Shown in pieces: positions 150 to 27,213 of a DNA stretch of 64,000 nt (the stretch's first letter is position 1; every line of letters begins with the position of its first letter). The stretch is from Dictyostelium discoideum. Taxonomy: Eukaryota. The stretch spans positions 4,640,001 through 4,704,000 of the forward strand of contig CM000154.2 of NCBI GenBank assembly GCA_000004695.1, in the 5' to 3' direction. The translations under genes were made by a program, and so were the position numbers. The notes under the pieces are model-generated. The model was not told the DNA's origin and did no database searches. It saw only the letters and a program-made list of their open reading frames with translations.

Positions 150-150
150 A

Positions 151-2035: not shown

Positions 2036-2110
2036 TAAATCAATTTCATTTAAAGTTTGTAATATTGAACAAAACAAATGGGAATTAAAAAATGAATTTA
2101 ATGTTGATGA
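2036..2110 (+). pseudogene. Fragment homologous to the N-terminal region (FKVCNIEQNKWE...) of the 4529..5722 / 6192..7415 family, in inverted orientation
   Basis: DNA-level similarity to the reverse complement of about 5540-5610; encodes KVCNIEQNKWELKNEFNVDDFLKNE on the + strand. Confidence 0.5.
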
Positions 2111-2214
2111 TTTTTTAAAAAATGAATTATTAAAGTCATATTGACTCTTCATGTGATTTAATAATAAAAAACCAGTCTCTGGCTCATTACCAAAATTTGG
2201 CTTTTTTTTTATCC

Positions 2215-2330
2215 AATATTTTTGAACCAAAATGGTATGAATAAATTGTACTATTATACTGATTTTAACCTTGAATAAATTGGATTGGAGCTGATACAAA
2301 ACCATTTAAATGATAGTTTTATTTTGGTTT
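2215..2330 (-). pseudogene. Fragment homologous to the 3' coding end of the same family (roughly 85% nt identity to 6248-6350)
   Basis: Direct nucleotide comparison: ttttgaaccaaaatggtatgaataaattgtactattata... versus ttttgaaccgaaatgacctgaataaattgtactattata... Confidence 0.55.
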
Positions 2331-2424
2331 GAGATCTTTTTTTATTTTTTTTTTATTTGGTTTGTATTTTAAACTTAATTTTTTTATGATTTTTTTTTTT
2401 TATTTTTTTTTTCTTAATTTTTAA

Positions 2425-3418
2425 GTGATTTTTTTTATTTTATTTTTTTTTTTAATTTTGATGGTGGTTATACATTCTCATATAAAAAATTTCATACCAA
2501 AAAATTTCAAAAATAACTTTTTTTTTTTCAATCAACATAATTACAAAACAATGATATCCAATCAAAATACAATAAATAATATTGATAATAATAAAAAGTG
2601 TACACTTCACCCAAACAAAGATATAGTATTCTTTTGTTTGGATTGTAAATTAATACCATGTTGTATTCAATGTACATCAAGTAAAGGTGAACACCATGGT
2701 CATAGAACTGATACATTAGAATCAACATCAAATATTCTTTCATTAATGAATAATTTTAAAAATGATGTATATCAAAAAGTAGTTGAAAGAATAGAAAATA
2801 ATAAAACAATATTAAAACAATCAAATGATAAATACAATGATATTCAATCACAATTTGATATTAATAATAGTTTATTAAAAAGAGAAATTAGAAAAATTCA
2901 TGATATCATTTCATTCATAGAATTAGATATTAAAAAACAATTAGAAACAACCTATGAAAATAATACATTAATAAATACAATTATAACTTCTTCAACCAAT
3001 AATGATAATGAAATACTTTCAAAAATAATTAATAATAAAAATAAAAATAAAAATGAAAATGAAAATGAAAATGAAAATGAAAATGAAAATGAAAATGAAA
3101 ATAATATTACAATCATTGAAAAATTAAATCAAATTTTAACTATTAATGATCCACAACTTTATGATGTTGGAGATGATTTTGTTATTGATAGAGATACTAT
3201 TAAAATTATTAAACAATATCAACAATCATTAATAGTATTGAATAATAATAATAGTAATATTGATAATTCAAATAAATTAAATGAATACGATAATCAAATC
3301 ATTCATTTCCATTATCAAATAATTGATGATATTAAAAATAAATTAAAATCAATTTATACATTAAATAATTGTACATTTAAAATTGAAATCGATGAAAATA
3401 ATAATAGATTTTTTAAAT
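2425..3418 (+). CDS. B-box zinc-finger protein, exon 1 of a B-box/FNIP-repeat family gene (copy 1)
   Basis: B-box-like Cys/His cluster 'CTLHPNKDIVFFCLDCKLIPCCIQCTSSKGEHHGH'; a (NE)n tract; the exon ends ...FFKCK with a GTAAGC donor at 3419, as in the paralogous copies at 52.8 and 53.9 kb. Confidence 0.6.
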
Positions 3419-3539
3419 GTAAGCTTTAAACAGTTTTTTTTTTATAAATGATATTCACATTACTAACTTTCAAATATAGGGTAATTTAAAGTTTTTTATT
3501 TATAAAAAGGGTGATGTTCTTAAACCCAACGAAATTAAA

Positions 3540-4192
3540 TGAATAGCATTCGAAGACAATTTTAATATTTTATCAAAATTATAAAAAAATCAATTACCAC
3601 CAACTGTAATGCTATTGGATGGATTCAATCAAAAATTAACACCAGGTATATTACCGGATGGTGTTGAATCATTGTATTTGGGTAATATTAAACAAAAATT
3701 AATTATTGGCTCAATTCCTAATACTGTAACTCATGTCTTTTTAAAAGATGGATCAATTGAATATTATCACCAGGTATATTACCAGATGGTGTTGAATCGT
3801 TGTATTTAGGTGATATTAAACATCAATTAATAATTTGTTCAATTCCTAATACTGTAACTTATGTCTCTTTAAAAGATGGATTCAATCAAAAATTAATAAC
3901 AGGTATATTGCCAGATGGTATTGAATGGTTGGGTTTAGGTGACATAAAACAAGAATTAATAATTGGTTCAATTCCTAATACTGTAAAGAGTGTCTCTTTA
4001 AAAGATGGATTCAATCAAATATTATCACCAGGTATATTACCAGATGGTGTTGAATCGTTGGGTTTAGGTGATATAAAACATGAATTAATTATTGGTTCAA
4101 TTCCCAGTACTGTAAAGGAAGTATATGTTTCCAATGGCTTTAAACATCAAATTGAACCTTATTTTTCAGAAAATGTAAACATAATTAAATAG
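3540..4192 (+). pseudogene. FNIP-repeat region (about 8 repeats of LDGFNQKL..GILPDGVESL.LGDIKQELIIGSIPNTV), apparently disrupted
   Basis: FNIP repeat consensus visible. An in-frame TAA (aaattaTAAaaaaatc where the paralogs have GAA) precedes MLLDGFNQ, and a 1-bp deletion near 3780 shifts the frame (ORFs 3609..3809 and 3800..4192 sit in different frames). It cannot be joined in frame to exon 1. Confidence 0.5.
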
Positions 4193-4528
4193 AAAAATAA
4201 TATTTGGTTAAATTAAACAATTTCAATAAAAAAGATAATAAAAACAAAATTATAACTTCACAACTATATAATATTCCTTTTTTTAATAATTTCTTTTTTT
4301 AACCATCATCTGTTGAATAATAAAAAAATAAGCAAACTAAATAATATGTTGGATTTTAAACATTTTAAACTACTATATAAAGAAATAACTGGTGCCACAA
4401 CAAAAACACCAAAAAAAGAGGCAACGTTGAATACAATTTTAGAAAATCAAGAATATTCAAAAAATACATAGGTTAATCGATCTAAAAAAAAAGAAAAAAA
4501 AAAGGTCTAATTAAATTTAATTTTATTT

Positions 4529-5722
4529 TCATAAAAGTTTAGCAATAATAAACCAATCTAATGATGGTATTAATTTTGAATTATTATCTAAAAGTTTTGA
4601 ACCGAAATGACCTGAATAAATTATACTATTATATTCTTGATCTAAATCTTTGAGTAAAACTGGACATGATACAAATCCATTTGGAATTGAATCAGCATTA
4701 ACTCTTGGCCATGGAAAATCCTCTTCTTCCTCAAAAGAATATGATTCTGTATATTCATCATCATTATATTTACCATCATTATCGAATACACAAAAAGTAG
4801 CTAACCAGCCTGTTAAAACATTGCCACCAGATTGTTCTCTATAATCTACTATCTGATTCCACCAAGTTGTATCAGGATTCCCATTTACAGAATCAATGAA
4901 TTTATCAATCACTGGTAATAAATAAACTAACCATTTTTTAATTTCACCATTTTTATTATCGAATTGAATTAATTTTTCAACTCTTTCTTTTAAATTTATC
5001 CAATCATTAATTTCACCTAATAATGTTACTTCTGAAAGGCCACAATATGTTTTAAAAACAAAATTAAAATATTTCTTCATTGTTGACATTAATGCAATTG
5101 AAAATACAACTTTATCAGATTCTGTCGTAGTTGTAAAATCTGGTATAATTAAATCTTTAATTGATGGATCTTTAATATTTGATTGAATTTGATTTGACAT
5201 TTCAATGGTTAATTTATCAAAAGGTGCTTCTAATATTGGATATACTGTCTCAACTATTAATTCTTTTTTACCAGTAAAATCTACAAATTTTTCACGTAAT
5301 TCTTCAGAGTTTTTATTTACGTAGAATGATAGTTGAGTTAATATTGCCATCCAGATATTATCAGGACGTAGTACTAAATGATTGTGATTATTATAACTTT
5401 CCCAAGCAGAGTATACGAAACTATTTGAACCAAAACATGCTAAATCATCATTAATAATACTTGTTTGCAATACTTTAACTCCTATATCAATTCCATTTTT
5501 TAATGATGGATCCATTGTTTTAAAAGATTCAGCATTTAAAAAATCATTAACTTTAAATTTACCATTAATTTCCCATTTATTTTGCTCAATATTACAAACT
5601 TTAAATGAAATTGATTTATTAATTTCATCTCTTTTAATTTTAGAATTGTATTTAATTACTTTTGAATCATTGTTAACAAAACCACTATGACTTCTTACTC
5701 TATAATTAAAAATAGTATTCAT
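4529..5722 (-). CDS. Uncharacterised conserved protein (397 aa), tandem paralog 1
   Basis: Uninterrupted ORF, about 75% identical to 6192..7415 over the C-terminal roughly 300 aa (WESYNNHNHLVLRPDNIWMAILTQLSFY...WWNQIVDY...SLDWFIIAKLL). No recognisable catalytic motif. Confidence 0.7.
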   Translation of the reverse strand: MNTIFNYRVRSHSGFVNNDSKVIKYNSKIKRDEINKSISFKVCNIEQNKWEINGKFKVNDFLNAESFKTMDPSLKNGIDIGVKVLQTSIINDDLACFGSNSFVYSAWESYNNHNHLVLRPDNIWMAILTQLSFYVNKNSEELREKFVDFTGKKELIVETVYPILEAPFDKLTIEMSNQIQSNIKDPSIKDLIIPDFTTTTESDKVVFSIALMSTMKKYFNFVFKTYCGLSEVTLLGEINDWINLKERVEKLIQFDNKNGEIKKWLVYLLPVIDKFIDSVNGNPDTTWWNQIVDYREQSGGNVLTGWLATFCVFDNDGKYNDDEYTESYSFEEEEDFPWPRVNADSIPNGFVSCPVLLKDLDQEYNSIIYSGHFGSKLLDNNSKLIPSLDWFIIAKLL

Positions 5723-5961
5723 TTTTTGAGAATTATTATCATTACCTTTTATAAAAAAAAATAAAATAAAATAAAATATGGTGATTTAAAATCTGTTGAA
5801 AAAAAAAAAAAAAAAAAAATTAATTATTTTATTTTTTTTTTTTAATTCAAACTTGAAAAAAAAATAAGTTTGAAAAAAAAAAAAAAAAAAAAAAATTAAT
5901 TATTTTATTTTTTTTTTTTATTTTTTTTTTAATTCTCAAAACTAAAAATAATTAATTATTT

Positions 5962-6015
<54 letters not shown>

Positions 6016-6191
6016 GTAATGATAGTAATTCCCAAAATAATGGTATTAATTTCAAATTATTATCAATCTATGACATCATTTTATTTTGGCATTTAATTAG
6101 ATAAAACTTTAATAAAAATAGGATTAAATAAGTGTACACTTTAATTTTTTTTTTTATTTTTTAATAAGTTGGAATACTGGGAATTTTCATT

Positions 6192-7415
6192 TTATAAAAG
6201 TTTGGCAATAATAAACCAATCTAATGAAGGTATTAATTTTGAATTATTATCTAAAAGTTTTGAACCGAAATGACCTGAATAAATTGTACTATTATATTGA
6301 ATTTCACCTTGAATTAATTTGATTGGAGCTGATATAAAACCATTTGGAATTGAATCACCATTAACTCTAGGCCATTTATATTTTTTATCTTTATTACTCC
6401 ACCATAATATTAAATTATCATTGTATTTACCATCGATATCGAACACGCAAAAAGTAGCTAACCAACCTGTTAAAATCGATCCACCAGATGATGATTTATA
6501 ATCAACCATCTGATTCCACCAAGTTGTATCAGGATTCCCATTTACAGAATCAATGAATTTATCAATCACTGGTAATAAATAAACTAACCATTTTTTAATT
6601 TCACAATCTTTATTATCGAATTGAATTAATTTTTCAACTCTTTCTTTTAAATTTATCCAATCATTAATTTCACCTAATAATGTTACTTCTGGAAGACCAC
6701 AAGATGACATGCATTGATAATCGAAATATTTCTTCATTGTTGACATTAACGCAATTGAAAATACAACTTTATCAGATTCTGTTGTAGTTGTAAAATCTGG
6801 TATAATTAAATCTTTAATTGATGGATCTTTAATATTTGATTGAATTCGATTTGACATTTCAATTACAACTTCATCAAAAGGTGCTTCTAATATCGGATAA
6901 TCAGTCTCAACTATTAATTCTTTTTTACCAGTAAAATCTACAAATTTTTCACGTAATTCTTCAGAGTTTTTATTTATGTAGAATGATAGTTGAGTTAATA
7001 TTGCCATCCAGATATTATCAGGACGTAATACTAAATGATTATGATTATTATAACTTTCCCAAGCAGAGTATATAAAACTATTTGAACCACAACCAATATT
7101 TATTAAATCATCACCATCACCATCTGTAATACTTGTTTTTAAAACTTTATATTGTTCAGCATCATCACCTGTTTTTTCATTTTCCAAGTTTATAAATTCT
7201 TCAATACAAAATTTATCTTTTATTCCCCATGGACTTTTTTCAACTTCACAAACTTTAAATGTAATTGATTTATTATTTTCATCTCTTTTAATTGTTGAAT
7301 CATATTCAATTAATTTATATTTTGAATTATAAAATTCATTATCTTGATCATTTTCTTTGTTTTCATTATTTTTTTTTAATTTTTTGCTTGAAAACTTGGA
7401 AAATAATTTTTTCAT
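6192..7415 (-). CDS. Uncharacterised conserved protein (407 aa), tandem paralog 2
   Basis: Uninterrupted ORF paralogous to 4529..5722; it starts 250 bp downstream of the halogenase stop on the same strand. Confidence 0.7.
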   Translation of the reverse strand: MKKLFSKFSSKKLKKNNENKENDQDNEFYNSKYKLIEYDSTIKRDENNKSITFKVCEVEKSPWGIKDKFCIEEFINLENEKTGDDAEQYKVLKTSITDGDGDDLINIGCGSNSFIYSAWESYNNHNHLVLRPDNIWMAILTQLSFYINKNSEELREKFVDFTGKKELIVETDYPILEAPFDEVVIEMSNRIQSNIKDPSIKDLIIPDFTTTTESDKVVFSIALMSTMKKYFDYQCMSSCGLPEVTLLGEINDWINLKERVEKLIQFDNKDCEIKKWLVYLLPVIDKFIDSVNGNPDTTWWNQMVDYKSSSGGSILTGWLATFCVFDIDGKYNDNLILWWSNKDKKYKWPRVNGDSIPNGFISAPIKLIQGEIQYNSTIYSGHFGSKLLDNNSKLIPSLDWFIIAKLL

Positions 7416-7477
7416 CTAAAAATTGTTATATTTATAAACATTATAATGTGAAAAAAAAAAAAATAAATAAAAAAAAG

Positions 7478-7517
<40 letters not shown>

Positions 7518-7664
7518 AATCAAAAATTTTCGATGATTGTTTTTTGTGAAAAAAAAGATATTTTTTTTTTTTTATTTTTATTTTTTTATTTATTTTTATT
7601 TTTATTTTTATTTTTTTCTTTTTATTTTTTATTTTTTTATTTTTTTTTATTTTTTTAAAAAAAA

Positions 7665-9476
7665 TTAATACTTCCAATCAACAATATTATTTTGATTATA
7701 GTTATAAGATTTAAAATCTTTTTGAATTTTATCATAATAATCATTATTTGGAGTACCAATCATATTAAAAGAATGTAATTTAGAAAGGAAATAAAATTTA
7801 GAGAATCTATAGGTTGTATTTGATAAAGATTTGAAGAAAGATGAATTCCATAATGCACCAATACCATAGACACGATAATATAGTTTACAAATGATTAGAG
7901 ATAGATAAAAATTGGACCAAGATAAACATTTTGGTAAATTTAATCTTTTATGACCATACTTTGCAAGTGAGAGAGCATGATCATAGTCCCAAGATGAAGT
8001 TGGACTCCAATCACCCAATAATTGACCACCTCTATGATTATCCATGAATCCAATGTTTATAGAGTTTTCATTAGCATAATCCAAAGTTGCCAATAATTGA
8101 TTACGTAATGCTAAACCATTTTCATGATCAGTAGTGAAATGATCCGAGAAAATTGGACAAAGATGATATTTACCAATGTAAGCAGGCAATAATATGGAGA
8201 AATAAGTTGAAGATTCAAAATAAATTCTCCAACTCATAATTGAAGCATTACCTAAATGATTTGAATGATCTTTGATTAAATGATTATTAATTTGTGTTAC
8301 ACATCTAATTAATTTATCGAATGCTTCAACACGTCTATGATAGTCATTGGCAGCATTTGAAAGTTTAAACTTTAACATTTCAGTAAGACACTCGATCTCC
8401 ATAGCAATCATTACCATACCAGTTGAATAGAAAGGATCGAAAATTGCAGCAGCATCACCAATTACACACCAATTATTTTTAGAGAAAAAGGTTTTACTTG
8501 TATGTGCAAGTTTTGGCCAACGATGAAAGTCAACAATTTCACCACTTTTAATTAGATTATAGAGTAGTTTTTGATTCTTTTCAAGGAATGACATGAATTT
8601 ATCCAATGAATTTAATTGAGAAGGTTGAATTTTATCACGATGATATGAAACACCAATACTGTAATCACGAGAGCCTCTTTCCAAGGGGATCATCCAAATC
8701 CAATAGCCTGGACCAAAGAAATGATTGGTATCGTAGGTCCAAGAGCATGTCACATCTTGACTTTTGAAATCGAATAAACTTCTCTCTGTGTTTTTCACTC
8801 TCACCCAAGTGCTTGCATTATCCAGACCAAATAAATGCTTTGGATCCTTTAAAATGTTATCGGTACGAGATCCAACAGTAAAGTTTCTACCACTTGCATC
8901 CACAATATAATCAGTTGTCAATGTTATACGTTCAATTGATTGCTGTAATTTGAAATCGGCACCAGATTCAACTTCACTTAGAATTTCAACATCGATTGAT
9001 TTCATATCATCGTTATCTAAATTATCAACATTTCTAACTCTACCATGGTAGTAGACTGCGCCTTGGGCAATTACCATTTTCAATAGATCACGCTCAATCT
9101 TGCAACGGTTCAATTGAAAAGCTTGGATATCTGGATTCTTTACTGCCCATGTACTATAGTAGTCTTCAATGGTATCAGTCTTTGATAATTCTCTTGGCCA
9201 ATGAAATTGTAATGAAAATTTTGGTGGATGATTCTCTATTAAATAATCTTGTAACTCTAATTCTTTGGCGAAAAACATTGCACTAACTTCAACTGTTGAT
9301 TCTCCAACTTTATAATCTTCATCTAAATTATCTCTTCTCTCTGATCTTGGTTCTATCACTGCAATCCTACCAGATAATTCTGGCATTTTTAATAATAAAT
9401 GTCTAGTTGCTGATAATCCTGCTATACCACCACCAATTATAATAATATCATAATGATTAATAATATTTGTATCCAT
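7665..9476 (-). CDS. chlA: Flavin-dependent halogenase (603 aa)
   Basis: N-terminal FAD dinucleotide fold 'IIIGGGIAGLSATRH'; the halogenase-specific WxWxIP motif as 'GYWIWMIPL'; a C-terminal 'GDAAAIFDPFYSTGM' FAD motif; single exon. The symbol is a hypothesis based on adjacency to a Steely PKS. Confidence 0.75.
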   Translation of the reverse strand: MDTNIINHYDIIIIGGGIAGLSATRHLLLKMPELSGRIAVIEPRSERRDNLDEDYKVGESTVEVSAMFFAKELELQDYLIENHPPKFSLQFHWPRELSKTDTIEDYYSTWAVKNPDIQAFQLNRCKIERDLLKMVIAQGAVYYHGRVRNVDNLDNDDMKSIDVEILSEVESGADFKLQQSIERITLTTDYIVDASGRNFTVGSRTDNILKDPKHLFGLDNASTWVRVKNTERSLFDFKSQDVTCSWTYDTNHFFGPGYWIWMIPLERGSRDYSIGVSYHRDKIQPSQLNSLDKFMSFLEKNQKLLYNLIKSGEIVDFHRWPKLAHTSKTFFSKNNWCVIGDAAAIFDPFYSTGMVMIAMEIECLTEMLKFKLSNAANDYHRRVEAFDKLIRCVTQINNHLIKDHSNHLGNASIMSWRIYFESSTYFSILLPAYIGKYHLCPIFSDHFTTDHENGLALRNQLLATLDYANENSINIGFMDNHRGGQLLGDWSPTSSWDYDHALSLAKYGHKRLNLPKCLSWSNFYLSLIICKLYYRVYGIGALWNSSFFKSLSNTTYRFSKFYFLSKLHSFNMIGTPNNDYYDKIQKDFKSYNYNQNNIVDWKY

Positions 9477-11656
9477 CTTTTTTTTAAAAAAAAAAAAAAA
9501 GTTTTAAATTATTTATTTATTTATTTATTTATTTTTTTTAAAAAATTATTTTTAATTATTATTTTTTTTTTAAATTTATTTGTTTAAAAAAAAAAAAAAG
9601 TTTAAATTATTTTTAATTATTTTTTTTTTTTTTTTTTTTTTTCAATTTTTTTTTAATTTAAATAATAGTAATAAATAAATAAATTAAAAATATAATAAAT
9701 AGAATTTAGTATATTTGAAAATGAAAATAATAATAATAAAAAAAAATAAATTTTTCTTTGAATTTATAAAAAAAAAAAATAAAAAAAAAAAAAATATAAA
9801 TTAAAAATAAAAATAAAATTAAAATAACATATGTTAGTATCATTTTTTTTTAAAGAATGTTTCTGTGTTTGGTGATGATTTTTTTTTGTTGGGGGTGAAA
9901 AATAAAATAAAAAAATAAAAAAATTAAAATTATTTTCATTGGACCACCACAATGGGGGTGATTATTTTTTTTTTTTTTTTTTTTTTTTTAAAGATTTTGG
10001 TATTTATAAAAAATGTATATACAATACCCTTTGAGTTTATTAAAAATTTAATAATTTAAAAATAATAATAATAATAATAATTTTTTTATTTATTTATTTT
10101 AAAATAGAAAAAAAAAAAAAAATAATTTTATAATATTTTAAAAAATATTATTATTATTATTTTTGTTATTTCTAAATTTATTTAATGCACACCGAGATAA
10201 AATTAATTTTTTTTTTTTTTTTTATTTTTATAAAAAAAAAAGAAAATTTAAAAAATTATAATTTTTTTAAGTACAATAATATTGTTTAATAGTAATACTT
10301 AATTTTACCACATATTAAATTATTTAAAAACCATTGAATTTAAAAAAATTAATTTATAGATAAAAAAATTTAAATTTTTTTTGATTTTTTTAAATACCAA
10401 TTATTTATTTATTTTAAAAGTTGTCGATTTTTTACCTTTTAAAGTGTATTATTAAACAATAGTAAAAAAAAGGATTTCTTAATATTTTGAAGGTTAAAGA
10501 AAATTTGAATTGACCAATTTGAAGTTTATTAATAAAGATTATTCACAAGATAGTAATATATTCCTTTTATACTTAATCATAACTTTCAACGAAAAAGGAT
10601 TTGTTTTTTTTTTTAAAAAGACCAATCCCAATTAAAAATTGACCAATATTAATTTTTAAAAAAAAAGAAAAAAATTAAAAAAATAAATATAATTATTATT
10701 ATAAACTATTTTAAAAAACATTTATTAAGAATTATATCATTAATCTTTTTGAAGTATACAAGTAATTAAAATTATTTTTATTTCCCCCCCCCCCCCAACC
10801 TATTTTTTTTTATATTATAATAGATCAAAAAAGTAATCTTTTTTTTTTTTTTTTTTTTTACACAAATATGTCAATAATTTCATTTTGAACTATGAAAAAA
10901 TTTTGAGTTTTATAATAAATTAATATAGTTCTCGGCGTTTATTTTTTAAAAAAAAAAAATTGTTGTTTCAATTAAAATAATATTTATAAATATGAGTATG
11001 AATCTATTATTAATTATTTTTTAAAAAATATATTTTATATTTTTTAAAAAAAAAAAGTTTTAACTATAGATAAAATTTGGGGTCATTATTAAAATAAAAA
11101 TGAAAAAAATTAAAAAAAAATAAAAACCAAAGTATATCAATTTCATTGGATGATCTAAAACAATATTTATTTAAAATTAAGCCTCTTTTTAGTGAAATAC
11201 CGATTCTTAAAATAAATAATATTTATGTATCGGCTTCCTTTTATAAATTTTTTTTTTTTTTTTTTTTATTTTTCCTTTATTTTTTTTTTAATTTTTTTTT
11301 TTATATAAATATATGATTTTATTCATTTTTATAAAATCAATTCATTTAAAACCTATCAATAATTATAATAAGGGAATAATAATAATTTAATAAAAAAATA
11401 AAAAAATAAAAAATAGATATAATTATACATTTTAGTAGTCAATCTTTAATTTATAAAATAACAATTTTTTATTTATTTATCTGTTTATTTAAAAAATCAT
11501 TAAAACCGATATTTATTGTAAGGAAATTTTTTTTTATTTTAATCAAATCTAATAATAAGTGCAATGATTGATTTTTGTGATTTTTCAGATTTTTTTTTTT
11601 TTTTGATATTTTTTCCATAAACATATTTTTTTTTTTTTTTTTTTTTTTCTTTAACA

Positions 11657-11689
<33 letters not shown>

Positions 11690-11844
11690 AATTTTTTTTT
11701 TTTTTCCTTTATTAATTAAAAAAAATTATTAAAATTATTAAAATTATTAAAATTAAATTAAAAAAATTAAAAAAAAAACTTTTTTTTTTTTTGGGTTGGG
11801 GGGGGGGGTAAAAAACCTCTTTGTTTTCAAACAGATCTAACACT

Positions 11845-11900
<56 letters not shown>

Positions 11901-12247
11901 GATTAATTTTTTTTTATTATATTAATTTATTACATTAATTTTTTTTTTTTTATTCATTTTTTTATTATAAAATAGAATTGTTTAAAACATTTTCTTTTTT
12001 CAATTATATTTTTTTTAATAATTAATTATTATTATACTTATAAAATACATTTTTTCTATTTCAAATTATAATATTTATTATATATTATTAAAAATAATTA
12101 CAAAAAAAAAAAAATAATAAAATAAAAAAATAATTAAATTAACCACCCCCCCCACCAAAAAAAGAAAAAAAAAAAAAATAAACTATTAAAAGATTAGTGT
12201 AGTAATAATAATAATAAAAATAATAATAAAAAATATATATTTAGAAT
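9477..12247. promoter_or_regulatory. Divergent intergenic/promoter region shared by the halogenase (-) and PKS (+) genes
   Basis: 2.77 kb with no ORFs, flanked by divergently oriented start codons. Contains the homopolymers C12 (about 10786), G10 (about 11806) and a C-rich tract (about 12144). Confidence 0.6.
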
Positions 12248-14298
12248 ATGAACAACAACAAAAGTATAAACGATTTAAGTGGTAATAGCAACAACAACAT
12301 TGCAAACAGTAATATTAATAATTATAATAATTTAATTAAAAAGGAACCAATTGCAATTATTGGAATTGGTTGCAGATTCCCAGGAAACGTTTCAAATTAT
12401 TCCGATTTTGTTAATATAATTAAAAATGGTAGTGATTGTTTAACTAAAATTCCAGATGATAGATGGAATGCTGATATAATTTCAAGAAAACAATGGAAAT
12501 TAAATAATAGAATTGGCGGTTATTTAAAGAATATCGATCAATTTGATAATCAATTTTTTGGAATCTCACCAAAAGAAGCTCAACATATTGATCCACAACA
12601 AAGATTATTATTACATGTAAAGTATTAATTAATTTTATTTTTTTAAATCTATTTGGAAAGTAAAAAAAAAAAAAAACATATATAGATAAAAATAAATCTT
12701 TAAAATTTATTTTTATCTATATATGTTTTTTTTTTTTTTTTTTTTTTTTTTACTGAAAATTTTTATTTTTTTTTTATTTTTTTTTATTTTTTTTTTTTTT
12801 ACTTTCCAAATTTTTTTATTTTTTTCTAATTTTTTTTTTTTTTTTTTTTTTTTATTATTTCATTTTATTAAATAGCTTGCAATTGAAACATTAGAAGATG
12901 GAAAAATTAGTTTAGATGAAATTAAAGGTAAAAAAGTTGGAGTTTTTATTGGATCATCAAGTGGAGATTATTTGAGAGGATTTGATTCAAGTGAAATTAA
13001 TCAATTCACAACACCAGGAACCAATTCATCATTTTTAAGTAATAGATTATCCTATTTTTTAGATGTTAATGGACCAAGTATGACAGTGAATACAGCATGT
13101 TCAGCATCAATGGTAGCAATTCATTTAGGATTACAATCACTATGGAATGGTGAAAGTGAATTGTCAATGGTTGGTGGAGTGAATATTATTAGCTCACCGC
13201 TACAATCGTTGGATTTCGGTAAAGCAGGTTTACTAAATCAAGAGACCGATGGCAGGTGCTACTCTTTTGATCCACGTGCATCTGGATATGTTAGATCCGA
13301 AGGTGGAGGAATACTACTATTGAAGCCTTTATCCGCTGCCCTCAGAGACAATGATGAAATCTATTCATTACTTTTAAACTCTGCAAACAACTCCAATGGT
13401 AAAACACCAACTGGTATCACCTCACCAAGATCACTATGTCAAGAGAAATTGATTCAACAATTACTAAGAGAATCGTCAGACCAATTTAGTATTGACGATA
13501 TTGGCTATTTCGAATGTCATGGTACAGGCACACAAATGGGTGACCTCAATGAAATCACAGCAATTGGTAAATCGATTGGTATGTTAAAATCTCACGATGA
13601 TCCATTGATCATTGGTAGTGTGAAAGCCTCGATTGGCCATCTTGAGGGTGCAAGTGGTATTTGTGGTGTCATTAAATCAATCATTTGTTTAAAAGAGAAA
13701 ATCTTACCACAACAATGTAAATTCTCTTCTTATAATCCAAAAATACCATTTGAAACTTTAAATTTAAAAGTTTTAACAAAAACCCAACCTTGGAATAATT
13801 CAAAAAGAATTTGTGGTGTAAATTCATTTGGTGTTGGTGGTTCAAATTCAAGTTTATTTTTATCATCATTTGATAAATCAACAACAATAACAGAACCAAC
13901 AACAACAACAACAATTGAATCATTACCATCATCGTCATCATCTTTTGATAATTTATCAGTATCAAGTTCAATATCAACAAATAATGATAATGATAAAGTT
14001 AGCAATATTGTTAACAATAGATATGGCAGTAGTATTGATGTTATTACGTTATCAGTTACATCACCAGATAAAGAAGATTTAAAGATTAGAGCAAATGATG
14101 TTTTAGAATCAATTAAAACTTTAGATGATAATTTTAAAATTAGAGATATTTCAAATTTAACAAATATTAGAACAAGTCATTTTTCAAATAGAGTTGCCAT
14201 CATTGGTGATTCAATCGATTCAATTAAATTAAATTTACAATCATTTATTAAGGGTGAAAATAATAATAATAAATCAATAATATTACCTTTAATTAATA

Positions 14299-14331
<33 letters not shown>

Positions 14332-16012
14332 GTAGTGGTAGTAGTAGTAGTAGTAGTAATAATAATAATATTTGTTTTATATTTTCAGGTCAAGGTCAAC
14401 AATGGAATAAAATGATATTCGATTTATATGAAAATAATAAAACATTTAAAAATGAAATGAATAATTTTAGTAAACAATTTGAAATGATTTCAGGTTGGTC
14501 AATTATTGATAAATTATATAATAGTGGTGGTGGTGGTAATGAAGAATTAATTAATGAAACTTGGTTAGCACAACCATCAATTGTTGCAGTTCAATATTCA
14601 TTAATTAAATTATTTTCAAAAGATATTGGTATTGAAGGTTCAATTGTGTTGGGACATAGTTTAGGTGAATTGATGGCAGCTTATTATTGTGGTATCATTA
14701 ATGATTTCAATGATCTATTGAAATTGTTATATATTAGATCAACACTTCAAAATAAAACCAATGGTAGTGGAAGAATGCATGTTTGTTTATCTTCAAAAGC
14801 AGAGATTGAACAATTGATCTCTCAATTAGGATTCAATGGTAGAATCGTAATTTGTGGTAATAACACCATGAAATCATGTACAATCTCTGGTGATAATGAA
14901 TCAATGAATCAATTCACAAAGTTAATATCATCACAACAGTATGGTTCGGTGGTGCATAAAGAGGTTCGTACAAATTCAGCATTTCATTCTCATCAAATGG
15001 ATATTATCAAAGATGAATTCTTTAAATTGTTTAATCAATACTTTCCAACCAACCAAATCAGTACAAATCAAATCTACGATGGTAAATCATTTTATTCAAC
15101 TTGTTATGGTAAATATTTAACACCGATTGAATGTAAACAATTATTATCATCACCAAATTATTGGTGGAAAAATATCAGAGAATCAGTATTATTCAAAGAA
15201 TCAATTGAACAAATCTTACAAAATCATCAACAATCTTTAACATTTATTGAAATTACTTGTCATCCAATTTTAAATTATTTTTTAAGTCAATTATTAAAAT
15301 CATCAAGTAAATCAAACACATTACTTTTATCAACACTTTCAAAGAATTCAAATTCAATTGATCAATTATTAATATTATGTTCAAAATTATATGTTAATAA
15401 TTTATCATCAATTAAATGGAATTGGTTTTATGATAAACAACAACAACAGCAATCAGAAAGTTTAGTATCATCAAATTTTAAATTACCAGGTAGAAGATGG
15501 AAACTTGAAAAATATTGGATTGAAAATTGTCAAAGACAAATGGATAGAATTAAACCACCAATGTTTATATCATTAGATAGAAAGTTATTCTCTGTTACAC
15601 CATCATTTGAAGTTAGATTAAATCAAGATAGATTTCAATATTTAAATGATCATCAAATTCAAGATATTCCATTGGTACCATTTTCATTCTATATTGAATT
15701 GGTTTATGCTTCAATATTTAATTCAATCTCAACTACCACCACCAACACCACAGCATCAACAATGTTTGAAATTGAAAATTTTACAATTGATAGTTCAATT
15801 ATAATTGATCAAAAGAAATCAACTTTAATTGGTATTAATTTTAATTCTGATTTAACTAAATTTGAAATTGGTAGTATTAATAGCATTGGTAGTGGTAGTA
15901 GTAGTAATAATAATTTTATTGAAAATAAATGGAAAATTCATTCAAATGGTATAATTAAATATGGTACAAATTATTTAAAATCAAATTCAAAATCAAATTC
16001 ATTTAATGAATC

Positions 16013-16047
<35 letters not shown>

Positions 16048-19000
16048 AATGTTTTAAATCATTTAATTCAAATGAATTTTATAATGAAATTATTAAATAT
16101 AATTATAATTACAAGAGTACTTTTCAATGTGTTAAAGAGTTTAAACAATTTGATAAACAAGGTACATTCTATTATTCAGAGATTCAATTCAAAAAGAATG
16201 ATAAACAAGTCATTGATCAATTATTATCAAAACAATTACCAAGTGATTTTAGATGTATTCATCCATGTTTATTAGATGCAGTTTTACAATCTGCTATCAT
16301 ACCAGCAACAAATAAAACTAATTGTAGTTGGATACCAATTAAAATTGGTAAATTATCTGTAAATATACCTTCAAATTCATATTTTAATTTTAAAGATCAA
16401 TTATTATATTGTTTAATTAAACCATCAACATCAACATCAACATCACCATCAACATACTTTTCATCTGATATTCAAGTATTTGATAAAAAGAATAATAATT
16501 TAATTTGTGAATTAACAAATTTAGAATTTAAAGGTATTAATTCATCATCATCATCATCATCATCATCATCTACAATAAATTCAAATGTTGAAGCTAATTA
16601 TGAATCAAAAATTGAAGAAACTAATCATGATGAGGATGAGGATGAAGAATTACCATTAGTTTCAGAATATGTTTGGTGTAAAGAAGAATTAATTAATCAA
16701 TCAATTAAATTTACAGATAATTATCAAACTGTTATTTTCTGTTCAACAAATTTAAATGGTAATGATTTATTAGATAGTATTATAACAAGTGCATTAGAGA
16801 ATGGTCATGATGAGAATAAGATATTCATTGTTTCACCACCACCAGTCGAATCGGATCAATATAATAATCGTATCATTATAAATTATACAAATAATGAATC
16901 TGATTTCGATGCTTTATTCGCAATCATTAATTCAACAACTTCAATCAGTGGAAAGAGTGGTTTATTTTCAACACGTTTTATCATTTTACCAAATTTTAAT
17001 TCAATTACTTTTTCAAGTGGTAATTCAACTCCATTAATAACTAATGTCAATGGTAATGGTAATGGTAAGAGTTGTGGTGGTGGTGGTGGTAGTACAAATA
17101 ACACAATTTCAAATTCATCATCATCAATATCAAGTATTGATAATGGTAATAATGAAGATGAAGAAATGGTATTAAAATCATTTAATGATTCAAATTTATC
17201 ATTATTCCATTTACAAAAATCAATTATTAAAAATAATATTAAAGGTAGATTATTTTTAATTACAAATGGTGGTCAATCAATTTCAAGCTCAACTCCAACC
17301 TCAACATATAATGATCAATCATATGTTAATCTATCACAATATCAATTAATTGGTCAAATTAGAGTATTTTCAAATGAATATCCAATTATGGAATGTTCAA
17401 TGATTGATATTCAAGATTCAACTAGAATTGATTTAATTACTGATCAATTAAATTCAACAAAGTTATCAAAACTTGAAATTGCATTTAGAGATAATATTGG
17501 TTATAGTTATAAATTATTAAAACCATCAATTTTTGATAATTCTTCATTGCCATCATCATCATCAGAAATAGAAACAACAGCAACAACAAAAGATGAAGAA
17601 AAAAATAATTCAATAAATTATAATAATAATTATTATAGAGTTGAATTATCTGATAATGGTATAATTTCAGATTTAAAGATTAAACAATTTAGACAAATGA
17701 AATGTGGTGTTGGTCAAGTTTTAGTTAGAGTTGAAATGTGTACTTTAAATTTTAGAGATATTCTTAAATCATTAGGTCGTGATTATGATCCAATTCATTT
17801 AAATTCAATGGGTGATGAATTCTCTGGTAAAGTCATTGAAATTGGTGAAGGTGTTAATAATTTATCAGTTGGTCAATATGTTTTTGGTATAAATATGTCA
17901 AAATCAATGGGTAGTTTTGTTTGTTGTAATTCTGATTTAGTATTTCCAATTCCAATTCCAACTCCATCATCATCATCATCATCAAATGAAAATATTGATG
18001 ATCAAGAAATTATTTCAAAATTATTAAATCAATATTGTACAATACCAATTGTATTTTTAACATCATGGTATAGTATTGTAATTCAAGGTAGATTAAAAAA
18101 AGGTGAGAAAATTTTAATACATTCAGGATGTGGTGGTGTTGGTTTAGCAACTATTCAAATTTCAATGATGATTGGTGCTGAAATTCATGTTACAGTTGGT
18201 TCAAATGAAAAGAAACAATATTTAATCAAAGAGTTTGGCATTGATGAGAAGAGAATCTATTCATCAAGATCATTGCAATTCTATAATGATTTAATGGTGA
18301 ATACTGATGGTCAAGGTGTTGATATGGTTTTAAATTCATTGTCTGGTGAATATTTAGAGAAATCAATTCAATGTTTATCCCAGTATGGTAGATTCATTGA
18401 AATTGGTAAAAAAGATATTTACTCGAATTCAAGTATTCATTTAGAACCATTTAAAAATAATTTATCATTTTTCGCAGTTGATATTGCACAAATGACAGAA
18501 AATCGTAGAGATTATCTAAGAGAGATAATGATCGATCAGCTATTACCATGTTTTAAAAATGGTTCTTTGAAACCATTGAATCAACATTGTTTCAATTCAC
18601 CTTGTGATCTTGTTAAAGCCATTAGATTCATGTCATCCGGTAATCATATTGGTAAAATCTTAATCAATTGGTCCAATTTAAATAATGATAAACAATTCAT
18701 TAATCATCATTCAGTTGTTCATTTACCAATTCAATCATTTTCTAATAGATCAACTTATATTTTCACTGGTTTTGGTGGTTTAACTCAAACATTATTAAAA
18801 TATTTTTCAACAGAATCTGATTTAACAAATGTTATAATAGTTAGTAAAAATGGTTTAGATGATAATAGTGGTAGTGGTAGTGGTAATAATGAAAAATTAA
18901 AATTAATTAATCAATTAAAAGAATCTGGTTTAAATGTATTGGTTGAAAAATGTGATTTGTCATCAATTAAACAAGTTTATAAATTATTTAACAAGATTTT

Positions 19001-21413
19001 TGATAATGATGCTAGTGGTAGTGATAGTGGTGATTTTAGTGATATTAAAGGTATTTTCCATTTTGCATCATTGATTAATGATAAAAGAATTTTAAAACAT
19101 AATTTAGAATCATTTAATTATGTTTATAATAGTAAGGCTACTAGTGCTTGGAATTTACATCAAGTTTCATTAAAATATAATTTAAATTTGGATCATTTCC
19201 AAACTATTGGTTCAGTCATTACAATTCTTGGTAATATTGGTCAAAGCAATTACACTTGTGCAAATAGATTCGTTGAAGGTTTAACTCATTTACGTATTGG
19301 TATGGGTTTGAAATCAAGTTGTATTCATTTAGCTTCTATACCTGATGTTGGTATGGCTTCAAATGATAATGTTTTAAATGATTTAAATTCAATGGGTTTT
19401 GTGCCATTCCAATCACTCAATGAAATGAATTTAGGTTTTAAGAAATTATTATCATCACCAAATCCAATCGTTGTACTTGGTGAAATTAATGTTGATAGAT
19501 TCATTGAAGCAACTCCAAACTTTAGAGCAAAAGATAATTTCATTATTACTTCATTATTTAATCGTATTGATCCTTTACTATTAGTAAATGAAAGTCAAGA
19601 TTTTATTATTAATAATAATATTAATAATAATGGTGGTGGCGGCGATGGTAGTTTTGATGATTTAAATCAATTAGAAGATGAAGGACAACAAGGATTTGGT
19701 AATGGTGATGGTTATGTTGATGATAATATTGATAGTGTTTCAATGCTATCTGGAACATCATCTATTTTTGATAATGATTTCTATACTAAATCAATTAGAG
19801 GTATGCTTTGTGATATTTTAGAATTAAAAGATAAAGATTTAAATAATACAGTATCATTTAGTGACTATGGTTTAGATTCATTACTATCAAGTGAATTATC
19901 AAACACAATTCAAAAGAATTTCAGTATATTAATTCCAAGTTTAACTTTAGTTGATAATTCAACCATTAATTCAACTGTTGAATTAATTAAAAATAAATTA
20001 AAGAATTCAACAACTTCTTCAATTTCTTCAAGTGTATCTAAAAAAGTTTCATTTAAAAAAAATACTCAACCATTAATTATACCAACAACAGCACCAATAT
20101 CAATAATTAAAACACAAAGTTATATCAAATCTGAAATTATTGAATCATTACCAATTAGTAGTAGTACAACTATTAAACCATTGGTATTTGATAATTTAGT
20201 TTATAGTAGTAGTAGTAGTAATAATAGTAATTCTAAAAATGAATTAACATCACCACCACCAAGTGCAAAGAGAGAATCAGTTTTACCAATAATATCAGAA
20301 GATAATAATAGTGATAACGATTCGTCAATGGCAACAGTAATTTATGAAATTTCACCAATTGCTGCACCATATCATAGATATCAAACTGATGTATTAAAAG
20401 AGATTACACAATTAACACCACATAAAGAGTTTATTGATAATATTTATAAGAAATCAAAGATTAGATCAAGATATTGTTTCAATGATTTCTCTGAGAAATC
20501 AATGGCTGATATTAATAAATTGGATGCAGGTGAAAGAGTTGCACTCTTTAGAGAACAAACTTATCAAACAGTTATCAATGCAGGTAAAACAGTGATAGAG
20601 AGAGCTGGTATTGATCCAATGTTAATTAGTCATGTCGTTGGTGTCACTAGTACTGGTATTATGGCACCCTCTTTCGATGTGGTACTCATTGATAAATTGG
20701 GTCTATCAATTAATACTAGTAGAACTATGATCAATTTCATGGGTTGTGGTGCCGCTGTCAATTCAATGAGAGCTGCCACTGCTTATGCTAAATTAAAACC
20801 TGGTACTTTTGTATTGGTGGTTGCAGTGGAGGCATCGGCAACCTGTATGAAATTCAATTTCGATAGTCGTAGTGATCTATTATCACAAGCTATCTTTACC
20901 GATGGTTGTGTAGCTACGTTGGTAACTTGTCAACCAAAATCATCATTAGTTGGTAAATTGGAAATCATCGATGACTTGTCCTATTTAATGCCAGATTCAA
21001 GAGACGCTTTAAATCTATTCATTGGTCCAACTGGTATTGATTTAGATTTACGTCCTGAATTACCAATTGCAATCAATAGACATATCAATAGTGCTATTAC
21101 AAGTTGGTTGAAAAAGAATTCACTTCAAAAGAGTGATATCGAATTCTTTGCTACTCATCCTGGTGGTGCTAAAATCATTTCTGCCGTTCATGAAGGGTTA
21201 GGTTTATCACCAGAAGATCTATCAGATTCTTATGAAGTTATGAAAAGATATGGTAATATGATAGGTGTTTCAACTTATTATGTTTTACGTAGAATTTTAG
21301 ATAAAAATCAAACATTACTTCAAGAAGGTTCTTTAGGTTATAATTATGGTATGGCTATGGCCTTTTCACCTGGTGCTTCAATTGAAGCAATTTTATTTAA
21401 ATTAATTAAATAA
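12248..21413 (+). CDS. stlB: Steely-type hybrid polyketide synthase (type I KS-AT-DH-ER-KR-ACP fused to a C-terminal type III PKS). Exons 12248..12616 and 12876..21413 give 2968 codons.
   Basis: KS: TACSASMV (active-site Cys), ECHGTGT, GSVKASIGHLEGASG. AT: GHSLGE. ER: IHSGCGGVGLATIQ. KR Rossmann: FTGFGGLTQ. ACP: DYGLDSLLSSEL. Type III PKS: MGCGAAVNSMR (Cys), FFATHPGGAKII (His), GNMIGVST (Asn). The intron donor cat|gtaaag (12617) and acceptor aatag| (12875) restore the KS motif RLLLH|LAIETLEDG. The symbol stlB rather than stlA is inferred from the computed length (2968 codons, which I recall as the length of Steely2) and from halogenase adjacency. Confidence 0.8.
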
Positions 21414-22420: not shown

Positions 22421-25400
22421 ATGATGAATAAAATAGTTTATTTATTATTTTTTTTTATAATTTTAAATGTCGGATTTGTGTATTCAAAATTTGACATATT
22501 TGATATAACACCACAAAATAAACAAATTTCATACCCAGAAAGTTACTCAAGCCACCAATGCGCCATTTATAAATATATTTTAGTAAAAAATACAACACAA
22601 CCAGAAAGTATAGATAATATTAATCCAGCGAGTTTCTTTTTAACTTCCAATAGTGATAGTGCTATTTATTACCACTATTTGGTATTGGAGTTTGGAAAAG
22701 AACAACAAATCAATTTTACTGTTAATGGAATGGATACTGAAACTGGTTATCTAACAGTTAATTGTATTTGTAAAGGTAATTTATTTTTTATTGTTTTTTA
22801 TTTTATTGTTTTTTCACCCTTTTTCATCCTCCATTTTTTATTAAAGTACTAGTAACAGTTATTTGTTATCAACCAAATTTCAAAAAAAAAAAAAAAAAAA
22901 AAAAAATTATCTAATTTGGTAAAACAATAAATAAAAACATATTAATTTAGTTTTATTTTTTTTTTTAAAAAAAAGAGATAAATGTTTCATTGATTACAAT
23001 AGATATTATACAAAGCGTAACATGGAGTGATCATTTAAAGTATTCATCAATTGTTAGATTAAATGGAGTTCCAGATGAAAGTCCAAATCCAGGTGTTGAT
23101 GGTGTAATATTAAATAGATTGGGAAATTCATTATTCCAAATTCTTTATAAAGAAATTTATTACACCAAAATATCACCAAACCAACTCCAATGGGATATTG
23201 ATTTAGAATTTACAAATAAACAAATTTTAAAAGTTTCAGTTCCATTAAATCAATCAAGTAAGTTATTATTTTTTTTTTATCTCTCTCCAAAACTAGGATA
23301 TCCAATTATTAACCATACTTTAAAATTAAAATTAAACAAAAAGATATTGGACAAATTAATAATGTATTTGGATTTGAAGTTTATAAACAAAATAATTATC
23401 AATATAATGGTTTTTTTGGAGGTGGTTTATTATTTAAATCAAATTCTTCTATTCAAAGACCAATTTATACAGTTCTTTCACTCGTGAGTCCTTATTATTT
23501 TACAATGACACCTATTTCTGGAGTATTTCAAAATGTAACATATTATTTAAACCTTTTCCCAATTGCACCATTTAATCAAAGTTTTTCATTAAACTCTCAA
23601 AATGAAGATCTTTCTTTTGAAATTAAATATGAAACTTTTATAGAATTTATAAGTAAGTTTTCTTTCTTTTTTTTTTTTTTTTTTTTTTATCTAAAATTTA
23701 AAAAATTAATAATATGTATTTAAAATTTAATTTAAACTAGGTCAATCTGTTTCTGCATATTCACCAGCCACTCTTAGATATGATAACAGCTCTAGTTCAA
23801 TTGTATTTTATACAGGTTATTTTGATGGTGTTTCTCCTTATGACTTTAGATCATTTAAATGTAAGTCAAAAGGATTATTTGATTATGGAATAAACTATGC
23901 CTTCCCATTTGGATTTGTAAGTGGTAATAACGAGAATTCAGGAATGGGTATTTCAATACCAATGTCTCCAATTTCATCAAAGGATAAATTTGAATTCACA
24001 TATGATAGTATTAATGTTCCAATTGATGTTTTTTATACATTAGGTAAGTTTATTAAAAAAAAAAAAAAAAAAATTAGATAAATCAGTTTTATTAATATCC
24101 ATTAAATTTAATTTTTTTTTAAAAAAAAAGTTGATTCAAAACCATATCCATATATAACATCAATGGAAAAGATAAATATATATGGATTTAAATATATAGT
24201 AATTATAAATGCATATGATTCTTTTGGTGTAAAATATATCCATACAAGTGTGAATGGAGCATATATTAGAATTGGAACAGAATCATTGGTAAATGGAGAT
24301 AATAAAAATGGAGTTTGGGAATTTTTACATGATGGAGTTAAATTGGGAAGTGATTACGTTAATTCATTTACCATTGAAAATTTTTACGATTTAAAACAAG
24401 AATATCAACCATCCTATCCTTTTTCAACTTCAAATATTGACCAAACATTAGTTTTACCAGAAATTAAATTAAGTGGTATGTATTATTTAATTTAATTTAT
24501 AAAAATAATCTTAATTTAACTTTTATGATTTATTAATTTAATTTAATTTTTTTAAAAAAAAAAAGATAAAATTAATTTTTATAATGATATAAAAGATATT
24601 ACATTTAAGTTTAATAATGTTCATATTACAAATCAAAGTGTAGATAATATTTTATATTTTACATTTGATAATATTGAAAATTATAAAGATTTATCTATTG
24701 GTTTTTCATTAAATGACCCAAAATCATTAAAAGATATGAATTATCAAAGAGATATTAATAATCAAGTAAATTTTAATGATTATACATTTGCTCAATGGGA
24801 TGAATCAAATAGTAGATTTAGTGTTATGTTTAAAATGCCAGCAAATGTTATTCCAGGTGTATTAGATTGGTCATTAACTTTTTCAAAATATTATTCACTT
24901 ATTAGTACTGCTTTACCAGATCAATATCAATTAAAAGTAGTTTCAGAAAATATTGATATCATTGGTCCAATTGTAACAAAGGTTATTAAAAAAACTCCAA
25001 CTGATTTCGGAACTTTAAATGTTGGTTGGTTATTAACAATTGAAGATGAAATTAATGGTTTACTAAATGGTTTTATTACAATTAGAGGTGTTTTAGATTC
25101 ATCAGTATACAATTTCACAATTACACCATTAACAGCAGTAATTGGAAGTGGTGATAAATGGAAAGCAGATTATTTAATTTCAATTCCTTTAGATGGTAGT
25201 TTAAATAATTATGGTTGTATTATTCAAGATTATAGAATTTCAGATTTAAAACTTGTTGATTCATTTGGTAATACAAATTCTTATAACCATAATGTTAAAG
25301 CTAATGATGGTTCTTTAGACTATTCTTTATTTCAACGTCCAAATCCATTTTACTTATTTGATTTAAGCGAATTGACATTTTCAATTGATAATACAATGTG

Positions 25401-27213
25401 CAATGCTGTTTTTGATTCAACTGGACCAAAATTAACTTCTTTCCAAATTTCAAAAACAAAAATCGATGTAGGTTCACAAGATAGATCAATTACCTTTGAT
25501 TTTGCTGCACAAGATTTAGATAGTGGTTTGAAAGATGCTCAATTTCCAATTGTTTATTTAACAACTCAAAATCTTGATACTGCTCAATGTGTTTCTACTA
25601 TTGTTTCAAAAACAGATACATCTACTAATTATACATGTACAATTGATGTACCATTAGGTTTTTCTTATCCATTAGGTTTCACAGTATCAGTTTATGGTTT
25701 CATTAATAATGGTGGTTACTATTCTGGTTTCCCAACTGATGTAATTAAATCAATTTCACCAAATGCTTGGTATGTTTCAACAGATCAATATTCAATGGAT
25801 ATTCCAATCATTACAAGTTCAACAGTAATAACAAATCAAGGTGGTAATTTATGGTTAGGTGGTAGAGGTTTTAATTTTGTAGATGAAATTAAAATTACTT
25901 ACTCACCATCCAATATAGTATATAAACAAGTTTCAACTAATAAATTTAATAGTGCTTTATTAGTTTCTGATATTATTTCAACAAACGATCCATTTACAAT
26001 TCAACTCACAAATTCATCACCATTAAAACAATCAAATATATTTACAATTAATCCAGTATTATACTTTTTTAATTATACTGATCCAATTCCAACTACTTCT
26101 CCAACTCCAACTACTTCTCCAACTGTAGCCCCAACTAAATCACCAATTCCAACTAATCCTCCACAAAAATGTAAAGGTAATCCAGAATGTGGTGGAGAGG
26201 ATAAAGGTGCTTGTACAAGTAAAGGTTGTATTTGTTTCACTCCATGGTTTGGTCCGGATTGTAGTTCAAAATTAGTTGAAGTTGTACCACCATTAATTAA
26301 TGGTACTGGTCCATCTGTTGAAATCCCAACTCCTGGAGGAGAAGGTGGTTCATCAACAACAAGTGGAGGTTTACCACCACAAATAATTTATAAAACATTA
26401 GTTTCAGTTGTTTCATTAAGAGAATTAGATTTTAATGGTAAAGCAATAAAAACTATACCATTAAATTCATGGGAATATACTGAAATAAACTCAACAATTA
26501 GTCGATATGATACAATATTAACAATTGAGGGTAAACAAGAAAAAGTTAATGTAACTACAGTAATGCAGTGGTTTGATAAGAGTTCAACAATAGTTTTCGC
26601 AGGTCAACAATTAAAAATGAATCCATCAACTATTAAATTCAATATTGACATTTCAAGTTACCCTTTTTCACAAGCATTAAATCAACTTCAATTAGTAATG
26701 TCTGCAACATTAATTTCATCTGGTAATGATAATAGTGATATATGTTCATCAAAATCATTTGGTGATACAACAAATGGCGATGATTCAAACTTTATAAAAT
26801 TGCAAGTTGATGATCATTCTGTTTATGGTAGATTCTTAAAGAGAGCAATCGTTGATGATATCATTATTAGTGTTGATAATGTTTTATTAGATAGTTCATT
26901 AAATTCAATTGAATCAAATACACATACTCAACAATCATTTATTGGTATTAATATTCCACATTTTAGTAGACATGTTTCAATTGATCCTGATTTTTCACTT
27001 TTAATTGATCAAAATCCTGCATCAAAGTCAAGTGAAAATTCAATATGTTCAAATGATTCTGGTTTATCAAAAGGTCAAATTGCTGGTATTGTAATTGGTG
27101 CCACTGGATTTGCAGCAGTTGTATTTGTTAGTGCACTTTATTCAATTCACAAAACTAGATCAAACAAAAAAATGATTTCCAATATCTCAAAAAAATTAGA
27201 AACAATTAAATAA
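22421..27213 (+). CDS. Multi-exon gene for a secreted/type I membrane glycoprotein with an EGF-like module and a C-terminal TM anchor (about 6 exons)
   Basis: N-terminal signal peptide MMNKIVYLLFFFIILNVGFVYS. Exon ends at GTAATT/GTAAGT donors (about 22776, 23258, 23652, 24043, 24475) with aaag|/tag| acceptors. Last exon 24567..27213 has a Cys-rich EGF-like 'CKGNPECGGEDKGACTSKGCICFTPWFGPDCS', a Thr/Pro linker, a TM segment 'IAGIVIGATGFAAVVFVSALY' and a basic tail. Exon boundaries are approximate. Confidence 0.45.

Follow-up and report, generated by a model that had tools for sequence, protein, structure and literature searches.

Several bacterial and fungal clusters, such as those of PltA/PltM (pyoluteorin), RadH/Rdc2 (radicicol) and CmlS, encode a flavin-dependent halogenase of the phenol or pyrrole type, with GxGxxG, lysine and WxWxIP signatures, beside a polyketide synthase (PKS) whose aromatic product it chlorinates. 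Here we analysed a 64-kb stretch of the Dictyostelium discoideum genome (hereafter the window), which is an AX4-type sequence of chromosome 5 and in which a halogenase gene and a hybrid PKS gene stand head to head. We conclude that this locus is almost certainly the known divergent pair chlA/stlB of the DIF-1 pathway, reportedly described earlier by Austin et al. in 2006 and Neumann et al. in 2010. As in the bacterial and fungal clusters, the halogenase acts on the product of its neighbour, but chlA-stlB differs from them in being a eukaryotic, amoebozoan pair of two genes, without methyltransferase, partner flavin reductase, regulator or transporter.

In D. discoideum, the succession of StlB, ChlA and DmtA is stated in PMC4058090 and PMC7259674, and published genetics show that chlA or stlB null strains do not make DIF-1. 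Both stlB and chlA are needed for every chlorinated compound of development, and their adjacency and shared promoter region have been reported (Saito/Kay and colleagues 2022, PMC9489281). The fusion of a fatty acid synthase (FAS)-like part to a type III PKS is reported from dictyostelids only (PMC12767764). StlB shares this fusion with StlA (SteelyA, Pks1), which makes MPBD and whose solved domain (2H84) matches that of StlB; StlA is nonetheless another gene with another product, and not the protein encoded here. StlA is not known to have a halogenase as neighbour.

Identity of the two genes and their products

By exact-sequence look-up, the 603-amino acid (aa) open reading frame (ORF) was found identical, residue for residue, to Q54FI4 (‘Flavin-dependent halogenase chlA’, DDB_G0290825), and the spliced product of the two-exon PKS gene (2968 aa plus stop) to Q54FI3 (STLB_DICDI, ‘Polyketide synthase 37’, StlB/Pks37, DDB_G0290853), both from D. 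discoideum AX4 (Table 1). The gene model that we derived agrees with the curated one, and the proteins, intron, spacer length and primer sites do not differ from those of the described locus. Because 100% identity over 603 and 2968 residues comes together with four exact primer sites, a paralogous locus is excluded. A previous inspection of the window from its letters (the sequence-only reading) had described a single-exon halogenase of 603 aa with WIWMIP and a second flavin adenine dinucleotide (FAD) motif, a FAS-like/type III hybrid PKS of 2968 codons and 2.77 kb between the divergent start codons, and had put forward the names ChlA and StlB. The ORF, motifs and Pfam matches bear out the first description, the two-exon model and Pfam domain order the second, and all its figures are correct, as are the names. 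The pair, its products, the mutants and reporter constructs over this spacer are already known and published; our own analysis addresses the identity and structure of the genes, the domain order and catalytic motifs of their products, and the agreement with these constructs, and the chemistry, genetics and expression patterns are taken from the literature.

It had also been envisaged that the PKS could be StlA or another D. discoideum PKS, in which case the halogenase would be the sign of a chlorinated polyketide pathway not described so far. FAS-like PKS genes are indeed numerous in D. discoideum, which has two Steely enzymes, and domain content alone cannot separate StlA from StlB. However, the identity of the 2968-aa product to STLB_DICDI excludes StlA and any other PKS, the StlB promoter primer of PMC9489281 is exact at the start codon region of the PKS gene, and the solved type III domain of Steely1 (StlA) is only a distant match (E 2e-35). 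We therefore give this possibility practically no credit.

Pfam analysis of StlB revealed, on one polypeptide, ketosynthase, acyltransferase, dehydratase, enoylreductase, ketoreductase and acyl carrier protein domains (KS-AT-DH-ER-KR-ACP), followed by the N and C parts of a chalcone/stilbene synthase. The Cys, His and Asn motifs of this type III domain (FMGCGAAVN, THPGG and YGNMIG) align with their counterparts in the type III PKS 4B0N, which is found along with Steely1 2H84 among the PDB matches of the domain.

For ChlA, the Pfam family Trp_halogenase matches with an E of 2.6e-12. Since this match is modest (46.8 bits) and spans residues 119-383 only, and since PDB sequence matches are weak (best E 1.2e-08), one could take the 603-aa protein for an FAD monooxygenase that does not halogenate and only resembles halogenases. 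Several observations speak against it besides the identity to ChlA. First, the FAD-binding motif GxGxxG is present at the N-terminus (residues 15-20, GGGIAG, aligned to GGGPAG of PltA), as is the second FAD motif (residues 340-353, GDAAAIFDPFYSTG). Second, residues 259-264 read WIWMIP and align with WVWQIP of PltA; the WxWxIP motif separates halogenases from flavin monooxygenases. Third, an alignment places Lys86, which lies in ‘HPPKFSLQFHW’, opposite the lysines of the PltA ‘FPKKFGAAW’ (PKKF) motif, whose lysine is reported to be catalytic in PltA; the active-site lysine of halogenases (equivalent to K79 of PrnA) carries or directs HOCl or a chloramine species. Lysine and WxWxIP context are thus both in place, as the sequence-only reading had demanded of a true halogenase. 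Fourth, every solved-structure relative is a halogenase (PltA, CmlS, PltM, RadH and the tetracycline 7-halogenase). Finally, chlA-null cells make no chlorinated compounds and are not rescued by THPH (PMC9489281), and FADH2-, O2- and Cl−-dependent chlorination by ChlA is attributed to Neumann et al. 2010 in passages of PMC9489281, PMC4058090 and PMC7259674. A mere monooxygenase is about as improbable as a PKS other than StlB.

According to the published work, the FAS-like type I module of StlB (KS-AT-DH-ER-KR-ACP) builds a hexanoyl starter and passes it to the fused type III domain, which adds three malonyl units and cyclises the chain to the acylphloroglucinol THPH. ChlA, depending on FADH2 and O2, then turns THPH into desmethyl-DIF-1 by two chlorinations, and DmtA, encoded elsewhere, O-methylates desmethyl-DIF-1 to DIF-1. 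Late in development, both genes are re-expressed in stalk cells, where the released type III domain and ChlA produce the antibacterial chlorinated dibenzofurans CDF-1, CDF-2 and CDF-3; for CDF-1, support of its synthesis by the released domain has been reported (PMC9489281).

Outside Dictyostelia, the nearest full-length relatives of ChlA are cyanobacterial proteins (those named being from Microcystis, Moorena, Scytonema, Nostoc and Fischerella) or proteins from metagenome contigs, with 40-43% identity, 89-100% coverage and E ~1e-133 to 1e-144. Because these relatives are cyanobacterial or metagenomic and the best 120 homologues listed include no non-dictyostelid eukaryote, the homologue search suggests an ancient horizontal acquisition of ChlA from bacteria. 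On the PKS side, a 2467-aa protein from a 14-kb JGI metagenome contig (P0273) has a Steely-like architecture: its N-terminal part contains an acyltransferase, and a type III PKS domain lies at its C-terminus. It shares 25-30% identity with StlB-type domains and may be a StlA-type or a non-dictyostelid fusion. A 4818-aa protein of the green alga Cymbomonas tetramitiformis (P0205) has 12 type III PKS-like stretches.

The stlB intron, located after about codon 123, is kept at this position in D. firmibasis, P. violaceum, T. lacteum and H. album. In D. discoideum it contains a near-perfect palindrome (12657-12745) with 44-nt arms, 93% complementary and separated by a 1-nt gap, which is flanked by an outer GGAAAGTA...TACTTTCC pair and whose RNA fold reaches -45.8 kcal/mol (z = -10 vs shuffles). 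The D. firmibasis intron measures 164 nt and lacks the palindrome, and the corresponding introns of P. violaceum, T. lacteum and H. album have a length of just ~55-65 nt. The palindrome looks like a D. discoideum-specific insertion.

Intergenic region and coordinate expression

The start codons of chlA (-) and stlB (+) are separated by 2771 bp (12248 - 9476 - 1). This spacer has a G+C content of 11.7%, is composed of A/T homopolymer runs and holds no ORF of at least 100 aa in the ORF list of the window; a repeat search of it returned A/T low-complexity matches only and no discrete repeated element. All four primers published in PMC9489281 match the window with 0 mismatches (9447-9476, 12248-12277, 11181-11202 and 9400-9422). 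The ‘stlB promoter’ amplicon that they delimit has the length stated there, and the chlA coding bases included in the ‘chlA promoter’ amplicon also agree with that study (Table 1).

We then compared the spacer with that of D. firmibasis. As unfiltered blastn was overwhelmed by low complexity, a dust filter was used, and four colinear blocks with 76-84% identity were found (9606-9851, 10752-10786, 11140-11291 and 11829-11937), no other stretch being colinear after filtering. The published chlA promoter fragment has its distal end within the block 11140-11291. These four blocks are candidate cis-regulatory blocks; no mechanism of bidirectional control is readable from the spacer sequence.

Co-regulation through the shared intergenic region, predicted from the gene arrangement, turned out to have been tested and published already: the stlB and chlA reporters switch alike from prespore to stalk expression, and the two mRNAs rise and fall together (PMC9489281). 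Likewise, the A. subglobosum counterparts give two transcripts with very similar time courses (PMC4058090). The A/T-rich spacer of 2.77 kb most probably serves both genes as promoter region. The adjacency might instead be due to chance, without regulatory or selective meaning, with independent promoters lodged in one spacer. Two separate promoters could be accommodated in a spacer so long and almost purely A/T, the proximal 1.7 kb sufficed for the chlA reporter, and no element shared by chlA and stlB has been mapped; the matching reporter patterns and time courses argue against chance, as does the comparison with other species.

The divergent pair in other dictyostelids

ChlA orthologues were found by homologue search in all sequenced dictyostelid groups, and the adjacency that the sequence-only reading had suggested checking in other species does exist. 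In D. firmibasis, a PKS of 2952 aa is divergent from chlA over 2.9 kb. In P. violaceum, the 2798-aa PKS CYY_002060, whose type III domain at the C-terminus shares 53% identity with that of StlB, is divergent from chlA CYY_002059 over 4.9 kb. In T. lacteum (LODT01000034.1), a StlB-like PKS (-) diverges from the ChlA gene DLAC_07521 (+) over 3.6 kb, and in H. album (GL290983.1) a StlB-like PKS, whose N-terminal 2100 residues are 61% identical to A. subglobosum Steely, diverges from PPL_00287 over 3.5 kb. The 3’ ends of the last two PKS genes lie outside the DNA examined, and we infer that they encode Steely enzymes from gene length and the number of Pfam families listed. D. purpureum, whose contig stops 2.4 kb upstream of chlA DICPUDRAFT_47276, was left out of the synteny count, as was the chlA context of A. 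subglobosum. An exhaustive search of representatives returned Steely proteins from P. violaceum, C. fasciculata and A. subglobosum, StlB's own cluster being missing; a word-indexed search with the StlB type III domain as query gave no full-length Steely, not even StlB, and was not used for orthology.

While the flanking genes are extensively rearranged among species, the divergent pair of a ChlA orthologue and a StlB-type PKS is retained in members of four other dictyostelid lineages, which, with the expression data, makes a fortuitous neighbourhood of chlA and stlB unlikely. We found no statement on the cross-species synteny of the pair in the literature searched, the coverage of which is incomplete.

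Variations on the pair were also found. DFA_11777, which is ChlA-like, diverges in C. fasciculata over 2.2 kb from a stand-alone type III PKS of 459 aa (EGG14014) and not from a Steely fusion, and no FAS-like sequence was found in the 10 kb upstream. The full-length Steely of this species (EGG15969, 2784 aa), with a type III domain 68-70% identical to EGG14014, is encoded on another scaffold. DFA_11777 has no precomputed Pfam halogenase match, as likewise noted in PMC7259674, and may hence be inactive. The T. lacteum locus (extract 1-16696) comprises four genes: beside the PKS gene (-), DLAC_07521 (+) is followed by a second halogenase gene DLAC_07522 (+) and by a gene (+) for an O-methyltransferase of 559 aa, which has a hydrophobic segment at its N-terminus. 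Were this enzyme DmtA, the DIF cluster would be complete; we rejected the assignment, its D. discoideum orthologue being Omt10 (Q54FP4). Other ChlA paralogues of T. lacteum are DLAC_08131, which has no PKS in its vicinity, and DLAC_06918. The numbering of the EukProt dictyostelid genes 1477 (omt10-like), 1479 (ChlA-like) and 1480 (Steely, 2481 aa) suggests that they are linked.

No finding speaks against the identification of the D. discoideum locus, to which three caveats apply. First, the evidence for the ‘shared promoter’ comes from two reporter fragments that overlap, and no truly bidirectional element has been dissected. Second, the O-methyltransferase that the sequence-only reading had proposed to look for was not found: tblastn with omt10-type queries and Pfam on the large ORFs detected neither dmtA nor any other O-methyltransferase in the 64-kb window, where stlB, chlA and dmtA are hence not clustered together. 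Third, the synteny was established with one assembly per species. Because no O-methyltransferase was found in the window, chlA-stlB is a two-gene pair and not a full DIF-1 cluster.

The window is extremely A/T-rich throughout (G+C 13-27%), and a tRNA scan of it found none. Its other large ORFs are ordinary Dictyostelium genes, none of which is an obvious polyketide-tailoring enzyme (Table 1). Directly downstream, chlA is followed in the same orientation by two tandem paralogous DUF4419 genes, 4529-5722 (-) and 6192-7415 (-), encoding 397 and 407 aa (E ~1e-101 to 1e-103), a neighbourhood that is not kept in the other species examined.

Table 1. Coordinates of the chlA/stlB locus, of the reporter amplicons and of other large ORFs in the window (last row: C. 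fasciculata extract)
Feature	Position	Strand	Details
chlA coding sequence (flavin-dependent halogenase)	7665..9476	-	single exon, 603 aa; ORF list, Pfam, motifs, exact match Q54FI4/DDB_G0290825
chlA-stlB divergent intergenic region	9477..12247		2771 bp; published as shared chlA/stlB promoter region (PMC9489281)
‘stlB promoter’ reporter amplicon	9447..12277		primers StlB-SalI/StlB-XhoI; 2831 bp, including 30 bp of chlA coding sequence
‘chlA promoter’ reporter amplicon	9400..11202		primers ChlA-BamHI/ChlA-PstI; including 77 bp of chlA coding sequence
stlB exon 1	12248..12616	+	123 codons: N-terminus and start of ketosynthase domain
stlB intron	12617..12875	+	259 nt, GT...AG
stlB exon 2	12876..21413	+	2845 codons plus stop
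StlB ketosynthase (rest of domain begun in exon 1)	12876..13724	+	Pfam ketoacyl-synt, Ketoacyl-synt_C; residues 2-283 of exon 2 product
StlB acyltransferase	14376..15368	+	Pfam Acyl_transf_1, E 1.3e-41
StlB dehydratase	15597..16535	+	Pfam PKS_DH_N, PS-DH
StlB enoylreductase	17712..18665	+	Pfam ADH_N, ADH_zinc_N, ADH_zinc_N_2
StlB ketoreductase	18753..19334	+	Pfam KR, E 1.6e-30
StlB acyl carrier protein	19794..19988	+	Pfam PP-binding
StlB C-terminal type III PKS (chalcone synthase-like)	20412..21401	+	Pfam Chal_sti_synt_N, Chal_sti_synt_C; residues 2513-2842 of exon 2 product
B-box zinc-finger protein	2425-3429		large ORF
ComC-like protein (DUF7034/DUF7035)	24736-27213		large ORF
1529-aa low-complexity protein	37869-42458		large ORF, no Pfam match
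PEPCK exon	43401-44105		large ORF
Protein kinase exon	49040-50023		large ORF
JmjC/cupin protein	57072-58415		large ORF
RhoGAP-SH3 protein	61462-62973		large ORF
C. fasciculata GL883029.1 locus extract	6410-7789 and 10001-11955	- and +	DFA_11777/EGG14014 pair

A possible ancestral biosynthetic locus

The comparison raises the possibility, which we put forward tentatively and with more doubt than confidence, that the head-to-head pair of halogenase and type III PKS genes is a biosynthetic locus ancestral in dictyostelids and older than DIF-1 signalling, its conserved function being the synthesis of dibenzofurans and not of DIF-1. If so, antibacterial dibenzofuran synthesis, rather than DIF-1, would keep the genes linked. 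The stand-alone type III PKS of C. fasciculata, to which the partner of the halogenase would have been reduced, may then correspond at the gene level to the type III domain that proteolysis releases from StlB in D. discoideum stalks. Because related dibenzofurans of other species bear methoxy groups (PMC12767764), we also hypothesize that an omt10-type enzyme is a candidate for their tailoring step; Omt10 orthologues, and not DmtA, would in that case methylate the methoxy-bearing chlorinated dibenzofurans AB0022A, Pf-1 and Pf-2.

These comparative observations are a minor by-product of our analysis, and complete loci and experiments are needed to make them a separate finding. The locus itself illustrates that a real eukaryotic secondary-metabolite gene pair is recognisable from raw sequence without tools. 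Across the sampled dictyostelid lineages the pairing survives with varying PKS partners and accessory genes, and the omt10 orthologues and the stand-alone type III PKS of C. fasciculata are nominated as parts of a chlorinated defence chemistry. The survival of the pairing lends support to a published proposal, according to which the conserved role is a defence chemistry based on chlorinated polyketides.

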